DNA of 64,000 nt from positions 15,429 to 79,428 of the forward strand of contig JAFLBT010000001.1 of NCBI GenBank assembly GCA_017302935.1, in the 5' to 3' direction. Position 1 is the stretch's first letter; every line of letters begins with the position of its first letter. The DNA comes from Flavobacteriales bacterium. GTDB taxonomy: Bacteria; Bacteroidota; Bacteroidia; Flavobacteriales; Flavobacteriaceae. Below the pieces are notes generated by a model. That model ran no database searches, was not told where the DNA came from, and saw nothing but the letters and a program-made list of their open reading frames with translations. Positions 5,433-64,000 of the stretch are shown here, one piece after another. Made by a program: the position numbers and the translations under genes.

Positions 5433-5491
5433 GGTTAACAGTTGCTAGTTGATGGTTTTACCAACAACAGACAACCGACAACCGACAACTA
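5433..5491. repeat. Converging heptamer arrays (GTT-period-7 arm facing ACAACCG arm)
   Basis: GTT at 5434/5441/5448/5455, then ACAACAG ACAACCG ACAACCG ACAACTA. Confidence 0.75.
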
Positions 5492-8436: not shown

Positions 8437-11400
8437 ATGAAAAAAATTCTACTATTATTTTTTGTTTTAACTTGTTTTATGTCAACTGCTCAAGTTGGTA
8501 TTGGTACAACTACACCCGGTGCCACTTTTGATGTGACAGCAACTAATCCAACCGGTCCGTCTACTAATGTAGATGGAATTTTGATTCCTAGAATCTCAAG
8601 ACAAAGAGCACAAGTGATGACTGGTACTCCCACTTCAACTCTTGTGTACATTGATGATGTGGTTTCAGGAACAGCCTCAGGTACAACAGTTAATGTTACC
8701 TCAGTTGGTTTTTACTTTTTTAATGGAACTATTTGGGAAAGAATTGCCGCCGGAGTGAGTACGGATTGGTCGCTAATTGGTAATAGTGGAACAAATGCAA
8801 CTACAAATTTTCTAGGAACAACTGATGATGTTGATGTAATTTTCAGAAGAAATAATTTAAGAGCCGGAAGACTTGGACTCAACAATACTTCTTTTGGATT
8901 AAACTCATTGAATCCTGCCGCTACTGGGATTAGAAATACTGCCATAGGAGCAAATGTCTTAAATGCTAATACAACCGGAACTTTAAATACCGGTGTAGGA
9001 GAAAACACACTATTTTCAAACACAACAGGAAGTGAAAATGTTGCAATAGGAGTTGGTAATTTATTCTCTAATACTACTGGAAATCAAAATACTTCTCTTG
9101 GTAGAAATGCCATGACAACCAACTCTACCGGAAGTTCAAATACTGCCCTTGGTTATCTTGCATTACGAGCAAATACAACAGGTAATTTCAATACTTCAGT
9201 GGGTAGAGCTTCTTTGCTTGCCAATACAACCGGCATTGAAAATACTAGTGTTGGTGTTAACTCTTTGACCGCTAATACAATTGGAATCAGCAATACTGCA
9301 ATTGGTGTTCAATCCAGTAGAGATAACACAACCGGATCAAACAATACAGCTATCGGTTATCAATCACTTTTCAGTAATTCTACAGGTAGTAACAACGTGG
9401 CAATTGGAAATCAAGCCGGTTTCTCTGAAACCGGAAGTAATCGTTTGTATATTGAAAACTCAAATGCAGATGCCAATAATGCTCTAATTTATGGAGAATT
9501 TACAACCGGATCAAAAGTGTTACGTACAAACAGTCAATTTCAAATCGGTAATCCAACTGTAACCGGGTATTCTTTCCCAACAGTAAGACCTGCCACCGTA
9601 GCTGGGCAAATTCTTCAATACAATGCTTTAGGAGCCTTAAGTTTTCAAGCTCCCTCCGCTGCTTTGAACGGATTTGCATGGTTAACCACCGGAAATTCAG
9701 GAACAGTACCGGCTACTAATTTTATTGGAACAACAGATAATGTGGACTTTCGAGTTAGAACAAACAATGCTGAGCGATTTAATTTTACCAGCAATGGTAG
9801 ATTACGAAGTTTAAACGATGGTGATGCAGCTCAACCCACTTATTCATGGAATGTTGCAACAGGTTTAACTATGGGTATGTACAGAATTGGTGCTAACATC
9901 TTAGGTTTTTCCACTAATTCATTAGAGCGATTGAGAATAAATGCTACTGGTCAAGTGATTGTAAACTCAGCAACTGCCTTTGCTACTTCCACTTTATACA
10001 GTTTAGCTACCGGCAATAATGATGCGATTGACGGAAATGCAGCAGGAACAGGCTCAGCTGTATATGGTCAAAATAGCGGAACAGGTGAAGGAGTATATGG
10101 TTTAACAACAAATGCGAATGGAATTGGCGTTGTTGGAGATAATTTAAGTACCGGAACTGGAGTTTATGGTCAAACTGCAGGAGCTACAGGAGCAGGTGTT
10201 TTTGGTGTAGCAAATGTTGCAAATGGTGTTGGTTCTTATGGAACAAGTAATGGAGCTGGAGGTACAGGTGTTTTTGGAAATACTTCCGGTAATCTTGGTA
10301 ATGGTATTTACGGTCAAGCCACCGGAACAAACGGTACAGGAGTGTATGGTTTTGCCAACAATACCGGTGGTGACGGTGTCATTGGTGAAGCGACTCAAGC
10401 AGGCAGATATGGTGTTTGGGGATTTAACAACAATGCTACCGGAATTGGAGTTTTTGGCAGCACAACGGGTACCAATGCGTTTGGGGTAAGAGGTCAAAGT
10501 TCTACAACCGCAACAGGAGTTATTGGAACCAATAATGGTACTGGTAACGGTGTTTGGGGTGATAACACAGGAACCGGTGTTGGTGTAAGAGGACAAAGTT
10601 TAACTTCGGGAATAGGTGTTTTTGGATTCAATAATGGTGCAGGTAATGGTGTTTTAGGAAGTAATACCGGAACAGGTCGTGGTATAGAAGGTCAAAGTGC
10701 ATCAACCGGTATTGGTGTCTTTGGTTTAAACTCAGGAACCGGTGTGGGTGTGCAAGGACAAAGTGTTACGACAGGGATTGGAGTAATTGGATTCAATACC
10801 GGAGCCGGTGTAGGCGTGCAAGGTCAAAATTCATCTACCGGAACTGCGGTTGTGGGTATAAATACAAGCTTAACCGGAGATGGAATAGTAGGACAAACTC
10901 CGGCAGGTTCTGCAGGTTTTGCTGTTTTTGCTAACGGTGATATGGGTGCGTCAGGTATTAAACCTTTCTATATAGATCATCCAACGGAACCGGCAACCAA
11001 ATACTTACGACACTTTGCTTTAGAATCAAATGAAGTTTTGAATGTTTATCGTGGGAATGTTATTTTGGATGAAAACGGAGAAGCAATTGTAACATTACCA
11101 AATTATTTTGAAACCATAAATACAAACTTTTCCTATAATTTAACCGCAATAGGTTCAAAATCTGAAGTGTTCATAAAAGAAGAAATTCAAAACAATCAAT
11201 TCAAAATTGCTGGTGGTTTGCCTAATCAAAAAATATCATGGCAAGTTTATGCAGAACGAAACGACGCATATTTACAACAATTCCCTGAAAAAAGAGCAGT
11301 GGAAATCAATAAAGATGCCAATGATAGTGGTAAATATTTGATGCCTGAATTATTTAATCAACCCAAAGAAAAAGGAATTTATCACCAAAATAATATACAA

Positions 11401-33827: not shown

Positions 33828-34436
33828 ATGTTGGATGTCCTCATTATTGGCGGTGGTGTTTCGGGCGTTTCTTGTGCTCTTATTCTTGGCTCTGCTCATT
33901 CTAAACCATTTGCATCTGATAAAAAAATCGCACTACTTTCTCACCAAAAAGCTTCTTCACTTCAAGATGCTTTGTTTAATAATGCATACGGTATTGAAGC
34001 CGGAAAATTGGGTAGTGAGTTATTAACTGAAAGTTTAGCTCATTTAACTTCGGTTTATCCACATATTCAACAAATTCCAAACGAAAAAGTCTTGAAAATT
34101 GAAGGTAAAAACGGGAATTTTTCGGTTACAACCAACAAAAATGTTTATTACACAAAATTAGTTGTGATTGGCATTGGAGCAGGAAATCCTTTTACGATTG
34201 AAGGTTTAGAAGAATTTGTGATGCCGCACCAAAAAGTCAATCCGGAGAAAAACCGCATTCAATTAAGGAATCACGACCACTTGGTAAAAGACGGTATTTA
34301 CGTTTGTGGTGTTTTGGCCGGATGGCGAAGTCAACTCTCAATTGCCTCCGGAAGTGGTGCTGCTGTTGCGACAGATATTTTAACGTTGTGGAATGGTGGT
34401 GTGCACGTTCAGGTGCATGATAGTATAAAGAAATAG
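33828..34436 (+). CDS. FAD-dependent pyridine nucleotide-disulphide oxidoreductase-like protein
   Basis: DVLIIGGGVSG Rossmann motif, GIYVCG, SQ..IA.GSG. Confidence 0.85.
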   Translation: MLDVLIIGGGVSGVSCALILGSAHSKPFASDKKIALLSHQKASSLQDALFNNAYGIEAGKLGSELLTESLAHLTSVYPHIQQIPNEKVLKIEGKNGNFSVTTNKNVYYTKLVVIGIGAGNPFTIEGLEEFVMPHQKVNPEKNRIQLRNHDHLVKDGIYVCGVLAGWRSQLSIASGSGAAVATDILTLWNGGVHVQVHDSIKK

Positions 34437-34477
34437 TTGTCGGTTGTCAGTTGTCTGAAAATCAGAACCAGAAACTA
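34434..34477. repeat. Heptamer array at the stop codon (CGGTTGT family)
   Basis: TAGTTGT CGGTTGT CAGTTGT CTGAAAA followed by CAGAAC CAGAAACT. Confidence 0.65.
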
Positions 34478-59027: not shown

Positions 59028-59534
59028 TTATTTTGGAGCCTTGAATAACGGAACAGCGGAACAAGCTTCGCCAAACATCACACTTTTGGCTACTTTTTGA
59101 AGGTTTTGCATAGCAAAAATGTATGCCGATTCAGGTACCGGTTTTTTAGAACATCCTTTTATGATTACCGGTTTATCGCTGTAGATGGAATAATCGATTT
59201 GATTAAGGATTTCGCTATATAATAAGGTGTCGATTTCTTCTTTTTTTCCTAAAATAATTTTCTTAGCAAACGGTTGTAGGTGTACCGTAACTAAAATGGT
59301 TGCCCAAGCCGGTAAAATGGCATCGGTTGAGCAATGAATCGCCACAAAATGGTTTTGATACTGCGACCAATCGTGGTTTTTTAATGCTTCACGGAAGTTT
59401 TTTTCTTTTAGTAAAAAACCTTCTTCCAACCATTGAGCAACATCAATTTGTGTTCGATTTCCGGAAGGATAATAATCTTCTAAATCGAACACTTCGAGTG
59501 ATGAGTTGGCTACTTTGTTGATGATTTCGTTCAT
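59028..59534 (-). CDS. DUF2480 family protein
   Basis: EIINKVANS, LKEKNFR, CSTDAILPAWA, KGCS, MFGEACS.VP. Confidence 0.85.
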   Translation of the reverse strand: MNEIINKVANSSLEVFDLEDYYPSGNRTQIDVAQWLEEGFLLKEKNFREALKNHDWSQYQNHFVAIHCSTDAILPAWATILVTVHLQPFAKKIILGKKEEIDTLLYSEILNQIDYSIYSDKPVIIKGCSKKPVPESAYIFAMQNLQKVAKSVMFGEACSAVPLFKAPK

Positions 59535-59536
59535 TT

Positions 59537-59651
59537 CCGTTGTCGGTTGTCGGTTATCGGTTGTCGGTTGTCGGTTATCGGTTGTCGGTTATCGGTTGTC
59601 GGTTGTCGGTTATCGGTTGTCAGAAAACAGACAACGGATAACTGACAACGG
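59537..59651. repeat. Heptamer tandem array: 12 x CGGTT(G/A)T plus 3 inverted units
   Basis: Twelve units at 59537-59620, CAGAAAACAG spacer, then ACAACGG ATAACTG ACAACGG. Confidence 0.92.
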
Positions 59652-59653
59652 TC

Positions 59654-59977
59654 TTACAGCATCCCCAATTCTAATTTGGCTTCTTCGCTCATTAAATCTT
59701 TGCTCCATGGCGGATCAAAAGTGATTTCTACTTCGCAGGATTTTACGGCATCGAGTGATTTTATTTTTTCTTCAACTTCTCTTGGTAATGTCTCAGCAAC
59801 GGGACAATTTGGTGAGGTTAGCGTCATTAACACTTTTACATCGTTGTCTTCATTGATCATTACGTCGTAAATTAATCCGAGTTCGTATATGTCAACGGGA
59901 ATTTCCGGGTCGTAAATTCCTTTAAGTACTCTTACGACTGATTCGCCTAGGTTTATTTCGTCTTTGTATTCTTCCAT
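59654..59977 (-). CDS. SUF system Fe-S assembly protein, DUF59/SufT-like
   Basis: YDPEIPVDIYELGLIY, TLTSPNCP, FDPPW. Confidence 0.92.
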   Translation of the reverse strand: MEEYKDEINLGESVVRVLKGIYDPEIPVDIYELGLIYDVMINEDNDVKVLMTLTSPNCPVAETLPREVEEKIKSLDAVKSCEVEITFDPPWSKDLMSEEAKLELGML

Positions 59978-60005: not shown

Positions 60006-60485
60006 TTAACCATATAAGTAGTATAAGGGAATATAAGTTAATCCCAAATTTGATTATATAAATTGTTAATATACGTTTTCTGGCCTTCTTTGTAAATGTT
60101 TGTTACATTAAAATTGATTAATAATCCTATTGGTATTTTTAATAAATTCATGTAAGATAAAATCTGAGCTTCAAAAATCGGTTTCATTTCTGTGACCGAT
60201 TTTAATTCAACTACTAATTTATCATCAATTAAAAAATCACATCTTAATTCGGCATCAACTTCAATACCTTTGTATTGAATGGGTATTAATAATTCCGATT
60301 TGAATTTAATTTTTCTTAATTCAAGTTCGTGTTTAAGACATTTATAATAAACACTCTCAAGCAATCCGGGACCAAGACTTTTATGAACTTCAATTGCTGC
60401 TCCATTTACTTGATAAATCAAATCCTTTAAATCTTGTTTTGTATAATTCATAAATCTTATAATCTTATATGGCTTATAAGGTTAA
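60006..60485. mobile_element. Candidate miniature mobile element: GxxExxY gene between inverted iteron ends
   Basis: Both ends read TTAACC(A/T)TATAAG inward, each with three TATAAG iterons. Confidence 0.6.
60038..60451 (-). CDS. GxxExxY protein (PD-(D/E)XK nuclease-like)
   Basis: LGPGLLESVY, RCDFLIDDKLVVELKS, Q..SY, GLLINFN. Confidence 0.93.
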   Translation of the reverse strand: MNYTKQDLKDLIYQVNGAAIEVHKSLGPGLLESVYYKCLKHELELRKIKFKSELLIPIQYKGIEVDAELRCDFLIDDKLVVELKSVTEMKPIFEAQILSYMNLLKIPIGLLINFNVTNIYKEGQKTYINNLYNQIWD

Positions 60486-60490
60486 AAAAG

Positions 60491-60910
60491 TTATTGCTTC
60501 GCTTCAAATGCTAAAGCATACATTTTTATCTGCTTGATCATTGAGACCAAACCGTTTGCTCTAGTTGGTGATAGATGTTCTTTTAACCCAATTTCATCAA
60601 TAAAATCAGTATTGGCATCTAAAATATCAGCAGGTTTTTGGTTGGAAAACGCTCGAATTAAAATAGCGATGATTCCTTTAGTCAAAATAGCATCGCTGTC
60701 GGCAGTAAAAGTAATTTTTCCATCATTTTCTTCACCTTGCAACCACACTTTGGATTGACACCCTTTGATAATGTTTTCATCGGTTTTGAATTTTTCATCA
60801 ATCAGCGGCAACGATTTTCCGAGTTCGATAATGTATTCGTATCGTTGCATCCAATCATCAAACATCGAAAATTCATCTACAATTTCATTTTGAATTTCTT
60901 GAATAGTCAT
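60491..60910 (-). CDS. sufE: SufE family sulfur acceptor protein
   Basis: RYEYIIELGK, IKGCQSKVW, DSDAILTKG, SPTRANG. Confidence 0.95.
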   Translation of the reverse strand: MTIQEIQNEIVDEFSMFDDWMQRYEYIIELGKSLPLIDEKFKTDENIIKGCQSKVWLQGEENDGKITFTADSDAILTKGIIAILIRAFSNQKPADILDANTDFIDEIGLKEHLSPTRANGLVSMIKQIKMYALAFEAKQ

Positions 60911-61350: not shown

Positions 61351-62565
61351 TTAACTCAACATCATTTGTGCTTTTTTAACGGCTTCTACCAACGCATCAA
61401 TTTCTTCTTTGGTGTTGTAAAACGCAAACGAAGCTCTCAAAGTTCCCGGTATTTGATAAAAATCCATAATGGGTTGAGCACAATGGTGTCCGGTGCGAAC
61501 CGCTATACCTAATTTGTCAATAATCGTACCAACATCATACGGATGAATGCCGTCAAGATTAAACGAAATTACGGAAGTTTTTTGGTTTGATGTACCATAA
61601 ATTTTCAAACCTTCTATTTCCAGCAATCTTTTAGTTCCGTATTCAAGTAATTCGTGTTCGTAGGCGGCAATGTTTTCAAAACCAATTGTATTGAGGTAAT
61701 CAATGGCGGTTCCGAGGACAATTCCACCCGCAATATTTGGAGTTCCGGCTTCAAATTTATGGGGTAATTCGGCATAAGTTGTTTTTTCAAACGAAACGGT
61801 CGCAATCATTTCGCCCCCGCCTTGGTAAGGTGGTAATTGGTTTAACCAAGCTTCTTTTCCGTATAAAATTCCGGTTCCGGTTGGTCCGCAGATTTTGTGT
61901 CCGGAAAACACATAAAAATCACAATCTAAGTCTTGCACATCGGGTTTGAGATGCGGTGTGGCTTGTGCTCCATCGATTAAGACCGCCGCACCAACTTCGT
62001 GGGCTTTCTCAATCATCCATTGAATAGGATTGATAGTTCCCAACGCATTTGAAATATGATTAACGGTTACGATTTTGGTTTTTTGTGAAAGTAATCGTTC
62101 GTATTCAGATTGAATTAATTCGCCGGTTTCGTTCATCGGAATCACGACTAATTTCGCTCCGGTTTTTTCGCAAAGCATTTGCCACGGAACGATGTTACTG
62201 TGGTGTTCTAACGCAGAAACCATGACTTCATCACCCGGTTTTAAGAAACTCGCAAAACCATTTGCCACTAAGTTAATACCGTGCGTAGTTCCGGAAGTAA
62301 AAAGCACTTCGTGACTGAATTTAGCATTGATATGCTGTTGAATTTTATGACGAGACGCTTCGTATGCATCGGTAGCCAATTGACTCAAAGTATGCACTCC
62401 GCGGTGAATATTGGCATTAATTTCTTTGTAATAATTCGCTTCGGTATCAATTACCACTTGAGGTTTTTGCGAAGTGGCGGCGTTATCGAAATAGACAAGC
62501 GGTTTTCCGTTTACGGTTTGAGAAAGTATCGGGAAATCGGCTCTTATTTTTTGACTATCTATCAT
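61351..62565 (-). CDS. sufS: SufS-type cysteine desulfurase
   Basis: YFDNAATSQKP, EHHSN, FSGHK (PLP Lys), RTGHHCA. Confidence 0.96.
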   Translation of the reverse strand: MIDSQKIRADFPILSQTVNGKPLVYFDNAATSQKPQVVIDTEANYYKEINANIHRGVHTLSQLATDAYEASRHKIQQHINAKFSHEVLFTSGTTHGINLVANGFASFLKPGDEVMVSALEHHSNIVPWQMLCEKTGAKLVVIPMNETGELIQSEYERLLSQKTKIVTVNHISNALGTINPIQWMIEKAHEVGAAVLIDGAQATPHLKPDVQDLDCDFYVFSGHKICGPTGTGILYGKEAWLNQLPPYQGGGEMIATVSFEKTTYAELPHKFEAGTPNIAGGIVLGTAIDYLNTIGFENIAAYEHELLEYGTKRLLEIEGLKIYGTSNQKTSVISFNLDGIHPYDVGTIIDKLGIAVRTGHHCAQPIMDFYQIPGTLRASFAFYNTKEEIDALVEAVKKAQMMLS

Positions 62566-62646: not shown

Positions 62647-62720
62647 GTGAGAGCTGAAATACCTCAAATGCTGTTTTTTATTTCTTATTATTTTATACAT
62701 TGCACGAAATAACATTTCAA

Positions 62721-64000
62721 ATGAAAAAGATTTTCAAATTTTTAGGTGTTTTGCTTTTATTGGTTGTCGTTTATGTGGGGGTAACCACCTATCCCAAATT
62801 GGATATTGTATCCGGTTTTTCGGCTAAAAGTGTGGCTTCGGGACATTTTATTGATGGTCGTTCTCTGGAAGTTATTGAAAGTGGCGATAATGACATAGAT
62901 AATGTTCGTTTGGCAACTAATGAAATCCATGAAGAAGGAAAATTTGTTATTTCTTCTGCTTTCGGATTAAAAAAACGCAAAGCCCTTTACCGAGAAGGTT
63001 TGGGAGCAACATTGATAAATGATGATTTTGATGAAACACAACCGTATTTGGTTCCGAAACGAAATAAAACAGCACTTAACTTATCTTTTCCGTATGGAAA
63101 TTTGGAACCCAAAGACAGCGTTTTTCCGGAAGTGAATTACGAAAAACTGAATCAAGCGGTTGATAATGCTTTTGATAAAAAAGGTGAAAAAAACAAACGA
63201 ACACGAGCTCTTTTGGTCCTTTATAAAGACCAAATCATTGCTGAGAAATACGAAAACGGATTTTCTAAAAACACCAAATTCTTAGGTTGGTCGATGACCA
63301 AAAGTATCACAGCGACTTATTTTGGAATTTTGCAAAAACAAGGAAAAATTGACATTACTAAACCCGTTGGTTTACCGGAATGGGCAAATGATGAACGTTC
63401 TAAGATTACATTACACCATTTGATTCAAATGAATTCCGGTTTGGAATGGGAAGAAGATTATGGAAAAATTTGTGATGTAACAGAAATGCTTTTTTTGGCC
63501 GAAGATATGCCCAAAGTGCAATTGGAAAAACCGGCTGCTTATGCCCCTAATACGCATTGGAATTACTCTTCGGGAACAACCAATTTGCTTTCCGGAATTT
63601 TGCGAAGACAATTTACAACGCATCAGGAATATTTAGATTTTTGGTATGCTTCACTAATCGATAAAATCGGCATGCATTCGATGTTGATTGAACCGGATAT
63701 GGCCGGGAATTTCGTAGGTTCATCGTATGGTTGGGCAACCGCTCGCGATTGGGCGAAATTTGGCTTGCTTTATTTGCACGAAGGCAATTGGAATGGTGAA
63801 CAAATTTTTGATAAAAGCTGGGCGAAGTATGTGGCGACTCCTACTCCTACTTCTAACGGTGCTTATGGCGGTCATTTTTGGTTAAATTCGGGTGGAACTT
63901 ATCCTGATGTGCCGAAAGATATGTATTATGCCAGTGGTTACCAAGGGCAAAAAGTTATCATTATTCCATCGAAAGAAATGGTAATTGTTCGTTTTGGATT
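62721..64000 (+). CDS. Serine hydrolase (class C beta-lactamase-like), 3' truncated; absent from ORF track
   Basis: Hand translation from MKKIFKFLG gives the SxxK motif WSMTK at about 63291 and WNYSSG. Frame is open to the window end. Confidence 0.9.
   Translation, partial: MKKIFKFLGVLLLLVVVYVGVTTYPKLDIVSGFSAKSVASGHFIDGRSLEVIESGDNDIDNVRLATNEIHEEGKFVISSAFGLKKRKALYREGLGATLINDDFDETQPYLVPKRNKTALNLSFPYGNLEPKDSVFPEVNYEKLNQAVDNAFDKKGEKNKRTRALLVLYKDQIIAEKYENGFSKNTKFLGWSMTKSITATYFGILQKQGKIDITKPVGLPEWANDERSKITLHHLIQMNSGLEWEEDYGKICDVTEMLFLAEDMPKVQLEKPAAYAPNTHWNYSSGTTNLLSGILRRQFTTHQEYLDFWYASLIDKIGMHSMLIEPDMAGNFVGSSYGWATARDWAKFGLLYLHEGNWNGEQIFDKSWAKYVATPTPTSNGAYGGHFWLNSGGTYPDVPKDMYYASGYQGQKVIIIPSKEMVIVRFG

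Follow-up and report, generated by a model that had tools for sequence, protein, structure and literature searches.

Intergenic heptamers of bacteria, including TAACTGA repeats, STRR and a general excess of 7-nt simple repeats, have been noticed repeatedly, and to our knowledge no function or origin has been accepted for them. The cyanobacterial STRR are heptamer repeats. REP/BIME and REPIN-RAYT elements are dispersed intergenic palindromes, often located in operons, with conserved positions and a single-copy gene flanked by the repeat. The intervening sequences of 23S rRNA in Leptospira, Coxiella and other bacteria consist of a long stem, either bare or carrying a four-helix-bundle ORF, at a site where they are tolerated or processed out. 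TAACTGA repeats are intergenic direct heptamers, mostly in forward orientation, that lie a few nucleotides from start codons and usually lack a ribosome-binding site (MacGregor, 2015, Front Microbiol 6:1397, PMC4679880). They are patchily distributed, occurring in marine Beggiatoaceae, Cyanobacteria and five Bacteroidetes, and are one-sided, apart from one inverted instance in the type genome; strains differ by indels in steps of 7 nt, and the suggested binders are S1, Csp or CsrA-like proteins (PMC4679880). A regulatory role was also proposed for the start-codon-proximal heptamers of Nostoc PCC 7120 (10.1101/2022.06.06.494920). A literature search for heptanucleotide repeats in Flavobacterium yielded nothing relevant.

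The repeat described here comprises 115 bases (59537–59651) of the window, i.e., the whole stretch of 64,000 nt that was analyzed, and is a hairpin of 7-base words in the gap between two operon genes. With a probability of roughly one half, we regard it as a slippage-prone intercistronic RNA hairpin with a leader, a local copy of a dispersed family of tandem-word hairpins, rather than as the footprint of a lost gene.

On the plus strand, the repeat begins with twelve adjoining heptamers (59537–59620), the first being CCGTTGT and the other eleven CGGTT(G/A)T, followed by a 10-nt core, CAGAAAACAG (59621–59630), and an inverted arm, ACAACGG ATAACTG ACAACGG (59631–59651). The reverse complements of the inverted units are CCGTTGT, CAGTTAT and CCGTTGT, all of which fit the consensus CNGTTRT. 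Tandem Repeats Finder reported 11.9 copies of a period-7 unit at 59539–59621, with a score of 138 and 89% matches. Shuffling predicts 1.04 occurrences of the two-unit pattern in the window; 21 are present, a number that none of 100 shuffles reached. An inverted-repeat search found a pair of 20 nt with 90% complementarity and an 8-nt gap, as well as longer pairs of 27–29 nt with 78–85% complementarity. The sequence-only reading, which described twelve units facing three inverted ones and filling the space from the SufT-like stop codon to the DUF2480 start, is thus borne out, with the first unit reading CCGTTGT and a spacer of 119 nt (59535–59653).

All flanking genes are on the minus strand. 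The cistron upstream of the array encodes a SufT-like Fe-S assembly protein (59654–59977, stop codon 59654–59656; PF01883, TIGR02945), and the downstream cistron encodes a DUF2480 protein (59028–59534, ATG 59532–59534; PF10652). In the mRNA sense, the spacer consists of the stop codon, GAC, three G/T-rich units, CUGUUUUCUG, twelve A/C-rich units, AA and AUG. The G/T-rich 5' arm (59631–59653, minus strand), delimited by the sequence, the pattern and inverted-repeat searches and the fold, reads GAC-CGTTGTC-AGTTATC-CGTTGTC and directly follows the SufT-like stop. The core or loop, placed by the sequence and the fold, is followed by the A/C-rich 3' arm (59537–59620, minus strand) of twelve units ACAACCG/ATAACCG (in another register, CAACCGA/TAACCGA) ending in ACAACGG-AA-ATG; this arm was defined by the sequence, Tandem Repeats Finder, the fold and comparison with PMC4679880. 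The last heptamer ends 2 nt before the DUF2480 ATG. This ATG-side unit, ACAACGG in the sense strand, and the stop-side CCGTTGT are perfectly complementary, so that the two ends of the spacer could pair foot to foot. The predicted fold of the sense RNA (−29.7 kcal/mol, z = −2.2) pairs about 3–4 units of the 3' arm with the 5' arm and leaves about 8 A/C-rich units single-stranded. An ORF of 72 aa across the array is encoded by the repeat itself. Only the 10-nt core separates the arms, and no gene of PF05635/TIGR02436 or TIGR04256 is enclosed.

Next to this locus, the minus strand carries a gene for a GxxExxY protein (PD-(D/E)XK-like, TIGR04256; 60038–60451) within inverted arms of the CATATAAG word, the whole unit extending over 60006–60485. 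This neighboring unit is a cargo-bearing version of the architecture of the array. Upstream of it are a sufE-like gene (60491–60910) and sufS (61351–62565), with a lipoprotein gene between them, all on the minus strand. Repeat and pattern searches revealed two more arrays of the CNGTTRT word in the window, both on the plus strand. The first, with the sense ACAACAG ACAACCG ACAACCG ACAAC (5464–5491), is located about 25 nt upstream of a plus-strand start and is preceded by a degenerate G/T-rich partner arm. The second, located between convergent genes, is AGTTGTC GGTTGTC AGTTGTC (34434–34454); it begins at the stop codon of a plus-strand gene, and a short loop and a degenerate A/C-rich arm come after it.

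A stable predicted stem-loop directly after a stop codon could terminate transcription intrinsically, or attenuate it, between sufT and DUF2480, and ordinary terminators with T runs do occur among the spacer-spanning hairpins of this genome. This explanation is highly improbable here. No U tract follows the stem, which is succeeded by an A-rich run and the next start within 2–10 nt; no terminator-like site was found at 59535–59653, where the stem is followed by GGAA-ATG, and this candidate was rejected. In addition, nearly all genomes examined have sufT and DUF2480 next to each other, frequently overlapping or 1–4 nt apart, which indicates that they are co-transcribed. A search of Rfam 15 assigned the spacer to no family and returned only sub-threshold microRNA-precursor look-alikes, with 18–21 bits against the 60–95 needed.

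The order sufT–DUF2480 is found in almost all of 120 same-genus genomes. The spacer was read in 105 of them, and with metagenome contigs about 165 junction copies were readable, most of which contain a hairpin of 40–130 nt. Among the 105 genomes, the spacer measures at least 30 nt in 77 (30–120 nt in 67 and 121–260 nt in 8), the two longer ones containing an acetyltransferase-like ORF and two reverse-strand ORFs, respectively. In the other 28 it is shorter than 30 nt, often being TAAAATG or an overlap of stop and start; the hairpin is therefore dispensable, since these congeners do without it. The junction picture at the metagenome loci (n = 80) is like that of the same-genus genomes. One allele, L143, carries 4 and about 10 units of the CNGTTRT word in unbalanced arms without a gene, and L144–149 retain a collapsed 34-nt remnant. 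Same-species alleles of the junction were not found in the metagenomes, the best match being 93% identical.

Of the 66 spacers of 40–120 nt, 61 fold far better than their shuffled versions (z < −2), and their predicted folds have a median z of −5.8, −23 kcal/mol and 23 pairs. Across 92 hairpins, pairing begins a median of 3 nt downstream of the stop codon and ends 9 nt upstream of the start codon. The words that build these stems belong to several types: CAGTNNN (27 junctions), GTTTMAN (16), AAAGTCN (13) and other words (18). The GTTRTCN type is represented by three, those of the window's genome, G108 and G076, with a 147-nt version in G107 as a fourth. Chimeras assembled from halves of different word types reach a mean of only −10.3 kcal/mol, compared with −23.1 kcal/mol for native spacers and −22.0 kcal/mol for chimeras within a type. 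The arms thus match within a word type and not across types, and at least four types are interchangeable at the junction. What persists at this place is the fold, not the sequence.

The junction word does not follow the phylogeny closely. On a sufT tree, word type changes 48 times, compared with about 61–67 changes after shuffling, a weak signal from a tree of only 324 nt, and two words alternate among the four closest genomes; the nearest genome to the window's genome, G061, has the word GTTTCAA at its junction. The proposition that the word tracks phylogeny was rejected on these grounds, and replacement or insertion fits the data at least as well as drift in place. The proposition that the junction carries the dominant word of its genome was also rejected, as G105 has 203 hits of GTTTMAN and an AAAGTC-type junction. 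The GTTRTCN/GTTGTC-type junction is confined to genomes with that word elsewhere (4/4, compared with 33/121 genomes overall). Target-site duplications are not claimed, as the A-rich flanks seen on both sides in many alleles are the normal composition of the spacer.

The assembly holding the window (3.09 Mb, 34% G+C, 253 contigs) was scanned for at least three adjoining CNGTTRT units, and the matches were positioned relative to 2806 genes (90% coding) predicted with a simple gene caller of our own. The scan yielded 73 arrays in about 61 loci, 47 of which are intergenic although the genome is 90% coding. Arrays within 15 nt of a stop codon are G/T-rich in the sense strand in 27 cases and A/C-rich in 4, while those within 15 nt of a start are A/C-rich in 15 cases and G/T-rich in one. 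At all nine two-armed loci the arms converge, with the G/T-rich arm first, and when all words are pooled, arrays near starts have C in excess of G in 21 cases versus G in excess of C in 5. The orientation of CNGTTRT arrays is thus far from random, and the sequence-only reading, which listed random orientation among its refuting conditions, stands on this point. The exact word TAACTGA (= CAGTTAT) is present in the 5' arm of the sufT–DUF2480 array and at many of the 61 loci. More generally, a spacer-spanning hairpin was found in 164 of the 630 co-directional spacers of 40–150 nt in the genome. Mixed-word loci also exist, e.g., C175:19415-19577, where the 5' arm consists of one word and the 3' arm of another, with no pairing possible; arms may therefore also act singly.

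These data bear on the view that the locus is a DNA-level or neutral repeat without an RNA role, either a slippage-prone palindromic microsatellite in a permissive spacer or a set of binding sites in duplex DNA. Such an origin is consistent with the free variation in unit number, with the congeners that have no spacer of this kind and with the mixed-word arrays that do not pair. The evidence for selection on the sense-strand RNA is likewise weak: in the mismatch test, 114 G-U-compatible mismatches were counted versus 84 A-C ones (p = 0.04), a marginal value from phylogenetically related sequences. We consider it unlikely nevertheless, because strict polarity relative to transcription and stems ending at stop and start codons are unexpected under neutral slippage, because the order of a G/T-rich 5' arm and an A/C-rich 3' arm, seen in nine cases out of nine, is not required of a duplex site that is symmetric between strands, and because the fold is kept at one junction through at least four word types. 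The retention of the fold, the stem ends at the stop and start codons, the exchange of words and the drift in unit number together point to a structural, strand-specific role near the start codon.

Within the genus, the CNGTTRT word is present in 33 of 121 genomes, with reversed-pattern controls near zero. The window's genome has the highest number of overlapping hits (109), followed by G076 (86), G017 (31) and G108 (29). Since the GTTTMAN word occurs in 97 of the 121 genomes, genomes evidently carry several word families at once. The flanks of 25 arrays from G108 and G061 were located in the window's genome; 19 of these arrays lie at junctions that have the CNGTTRT word there too, and the remaining six junctions have another word or no repeat. 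The shared junctions give little sign of recent movement. Unit numbers differ at orthologous loci (4 vs. 14, 4 vs. 9 and 7 vs. 5). Array positions are thus stable between species, while unit number and word are labile.

Similar arms enclose genes elsewhere in the genome, which encodes six GxxExxY (TIGR04256) and seven four-helix-bundle (TIGR02436/PF05635) proteins. According to the sequence-only reading, small four-helix-bundle genes of Flavobacteria are flanked by heptamers of this kind; in this genome, all 13 genes of the two families are located between inverted arms of short tandem words, with nearly every gene having its own word. The genome-wide search for arrays and enclosed genes, also suggested there, identified a single four-helix-bundle gene with CNGTTRT arms among the loci (G000:C175:20809-21171). 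After the stop codon come 5 units, then the gene, a further 4 units, the loop and 10 inverted units, which end 3 nt before the start codon, so that a hairpin of the gene-less type lies immediately downstream of the gene. The gene is single-copy, and about 20 other genomes encode members of this protein subfamily (58–76% identity) at the same junction, flanked by two amidinotransferase-like genes. Their arms consist of CAGTTAT, GAGTTGT, GGGTTTT or AAGTTGT, and both arms change together; CNGTTRT units are found in an arm beside the gene in, e.g., G094, G078, G027 and G087, so that relatives with a gene beside such units do exist, while most members have other NNGTTRT variants. In other species the junction is empty or contains another insert or a gene-less hairpin of a different word. 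No paper on four-helix-bundle or GxxExxY cassettes with word arms was found in the literature.

None of the cassette words of the genome is confined to cassettes, as each occurs in gene-less hairpins too. The words CATTAAG (at least 7 loci), GAACACAGATTT, CACGAATT, TGATTAG and TAGATTN occur in strong spacer-spanning hairpins, as does the word of the GxxExxY arms described above, at C114:2970-3043. Among the GxxExxY paralogs, those with similar words are most closely related to one another. The cassettes and the repeat at 59537–59651 have in common inverted tandem-word arms, a 5' arm at the stop codon, a 3' arm at the next start codon and the same polarity. They differ in that the cassettes enclose a gene while the repeat has only a 10-nt loop, and gene-less forms far outnumber gene-bearing ones. 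The description of the locus as an empty iteron element is therefore right about the architecture, which is that of the cassettes, and about the word, which is common to the C175 gene; it is not supported in that a gene-less hairpin is the normal, long-standing state of this junction in the genus.

A cassette of the form arm, gene, arm, loop and opposite arm could have lost its gene at sufT–DUF2480 by recombination between the direct arms, leaving 3 versus 12 units. The C175 and C207 cassettes have precisely this order, so that their genes are flanked by recombinable direct repeats, gene-bearing and gene-less forms alternate between species at the C175 gene junction, and the arms at sufT–DUF2480 are unbalanced. 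Inspection of the orthologous junctions for a gene, as the sequence-only reading had proposed, turned up one case, in a distant lineage: at the metagenome loci L212 and L213 (58% DUF2480 identity), CATTAAG/CTTAAG arms enclose a GxxExxY gene that is frameshifted and lies on the opposite strand. This only gene-bearing allele found differs from the window's locus in its word, which is not CNGTTRT, and in its gene family. Neither a four-helix-bundle nor a GxxExxY gene lies between sufT and DUF2480 in any of the 105 same-genus genomes, nor was one found in metagenome relatives with more than 60% identity; as a rule the junction has a gene-less hairpin. The loop contains no gene remnant, and unbalanced CNGTTRT arms recur without a gene in L143, where slippage explains them. 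A deletion footprint is accordingly quite improbable, and that part of the sequence-only reading is not supported.

The sharing of words between gene-less hairpins and cassettes is a hint of a trans-acting protein, although the RNA-hairpin explanation does not require one. The gene-less arrays could be partners, in the manner of REPINs or MITEs, of a protein specific for their word (that of PF05635 at C175, GxxExxY nucleases for other words) that binds the heptamers and spreads, copies or maintains them, the sufT–DUF2480 array being a dependent copy. The CNGTTRT units in arms of the C175 gene and of some members of its subfamily agree with this, as do the gene-less copies of every cassette word, the relatedness of GxxExxY paralogs with similar words and the RAYT-like occurrence of the C175-type gene as a single copy at one conserved junction in about 20 species. 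The word is also patchy in the genus, and the window's genome, which holds the gene, has most copies. Other genomes speak against this. G076, a complete genome with its 86 hits, encodes nine four-helix-bundle proteins, none of them with CNGTTRT arms (0/9), and CNGTTRT arrays are present in G108, G061, G019 and G033, where the C175-type gene is absent. Array positions are largely conserved between species, and the word drifts between species at the orthologous four-helix-bundle junction. Two weak hits to the Y1 transposase family PF01797 were obtained, on C40 and C114, and neither contig has an array; a RAYT was thus rejected. We know of no transposase or nuclease activity for the four-helix-bundle fold. 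On balance this explanation is doubtful, and nothing in the data demonstrates dependence of the sufT–DUF2480 array on a cognate gene.

The intercistronic RNA hairpin thus remains the preferred reading, and the following mechanism may be envisaged. Bacteroidota are not known to use Shine-Dalgarno pairing, and the element would act at the RNA level in such a lineage. The stem would hold the sufT stop codon and the DUF2480 start codon together, and a ribosome terminating on sufT would melt its lower part, freeing an unstructured, G-poor A/C leader just before the DUF2480 AUG. The 30S subunit, ribosomal protein S1 or some other binder of single strands could land on this leader. With a 3' arm grown to 12 units, about 8 units would be permanently unpaired, and DUF2480 translation may be raised or uncoupled. 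The arms probably lengthen and shorten by replication slippage, pairing in multiple registers would make the fold tolerant of such changes, and the complementarity of the arms may be kept by selection or by copying between arms. The four-helix-bundle and GxxExxY cassettes would then be cargo-carrying versions of this hairpin class, and the sufT–DUF2480 locus would not be the scar of one.

More speculatively, and in our estimate with a rather low likelihood, tandem-word hairpins could be a general, Shine-Dalgarno-independent means of coupling or gating operon translation in Bacteroidota and perhaps in the phyla with TAACTGA or STRR repeats. The A/C-only heptamers, exposed once the terminating ribosome has opened a stem that ties a stop codon to the next start, would be recognized one unit at a time by S1 or a dedicated binder, the pentameric four-helix-bundle "IVS proteins" would be word-specific readers travelling inside the hairpins, and unit number, inherited and altered by slippage, would set the stoichiometry of operon products like a dial. 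The sufT–DUF2480 junction offers a comparative case, in which one operon junction is followed through more than 100 congeners, and a concrete system for asking whether unit number sets downstream expression. Placing the four-helix-bundle and GxxExxY families as passengers of a hairpin class also narrows what these proteins might recognize.

Overall, the repeat at 59537–59651 most resembles the TAACTGA repeats: its sense units TAACCGA/CAACCGA differ from TAACTGA by 1–2 nt, and it is likewise forward and 2 nt from the ATG (PMC4679880). Unlike these one-sided repeats, it has an inverted arm of three units and forms a hairpin as long as the spacer, and the genome contains nine two-armed loci. Other words fill the same junction in congeners, and the TAACTGA study makes no link to four-helix-bundle or GxxExxY genes (PMC4679880). 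New relative to that literature are the inverted partner arm, the conservation of the fold through several words and the stem ends at the stop and start codons. The STRR and the heptamers of Nostoc PCC 7120 are, like the units described here, contiguous, near starts or promoters and suspected of regulation; their words and phylum are different, and the hairpin form and the conservation of a junction are not described there. Unlike REPIN-RAYT systems, the family has no conserved REP sequence of 20–35 nt and no adjoining Y1 transposase, its copies having only a degenerate heptamer in common and differing in unit number and word from locus to locus and species to species, and unlike REP/BIME elements its arms are internally tandem, with a word that changes between species. 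Finally, the 23S rRNA intervening sequences lie in an rRNA helix and are excised by RNase III, while the repeat at 59537–59651 is located in an mRNA spacer between protein genes and has arms of tandem heptamers.

Within the source genome (G000), the short tandem words that flank GxxExxY genes (TIGR04256) recur in hairpins that enclose no gene. These words are CATATAAG, which also builds the arms of the GxxExxY unit at window positions 60006-60485, and the CATTAAG/CTTAATG family, which also surrounds the GxxExxY gene on contig C194. Gene-less hairpins with GxxExxY-type words are located at C114:2970-3043, C101:5131-5237, C246:3921-3998, C64:3843-3933, C1:80916-81032 and C207:15444-15551.

At the sufT-DUF2480 junction, which in the window holds the CNGTTRT hairpin (59537-59651), a distant relative carries a GxxExxY gene. 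In this organism, represented by metagenome contigs B570J29032_109959045 and Ga0208222_1000255 (loci L212 and L213), a 563-nt spacer upstream of DUF2480 contains a frameshifted copy on the opposite strand, split into two fragments (TIGR04256 positions 1-49 and 33-111) and flanked by arms of CATTAAG/CTTAAG words. The same spacer in two same-genus genomes, G105 (L084) and G097 (L108), comprises two complete word hairpins in tandem (156 and 163 nt), which suggests a duplication or a second insertion at this junction.

Over the whole genome, a hairpin spanning the spacer, defined by z below -3 and at least 14 pairs, was found in 164 of the 630 co-directional spacers of 40-150 nt. The stem starts at a median of 4 nt past the stop codon and ends at a median of 10 nt before the next start. 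Many of these structures are word hairpins, and others among them are standard T-run terminators.

Outside the window, at C175:19415-19577, an (AGTGATT)n array immediately adjoins an (AACAGAT)n array. On the coding strand of the neighbouring genes, the G/T-rich arm of one word is followed by the A/C-rich arm of another; because these two arms are unable to pair, arms may also function, or persist, singly.

Two other repeats were observed in the window. Positions 62754-62774 weakly match the CNGTTRT word over three units (TGGTTGT CGTTTAT ...), about 55 nt within a plus-strand ORF whose start was called at 62700 by the gene caller; its real start may lie downstream of the match. A 99-bp tandem repeat (10481-10708; 2.3 copies, 72% matches) lies within a long repeat-rich ORF.

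The junction occupied in G000 by a four-helix-bundle gene (C175:20809-21171) contains a tandem repeat of about 135 bp in about 2.5 copies in G108 (L252), a G+C-rich palindrome, CCTAACCCCCGAAGGGGGAATT...AATTCCCCCTTCGGGGGTTAGG, in G111 (L262), and a 706-nt insert in G061 (L253), the latter encoding two small same-strand ORFs of 81 and 110 aa. This junction is a hot spot with varied inserts.
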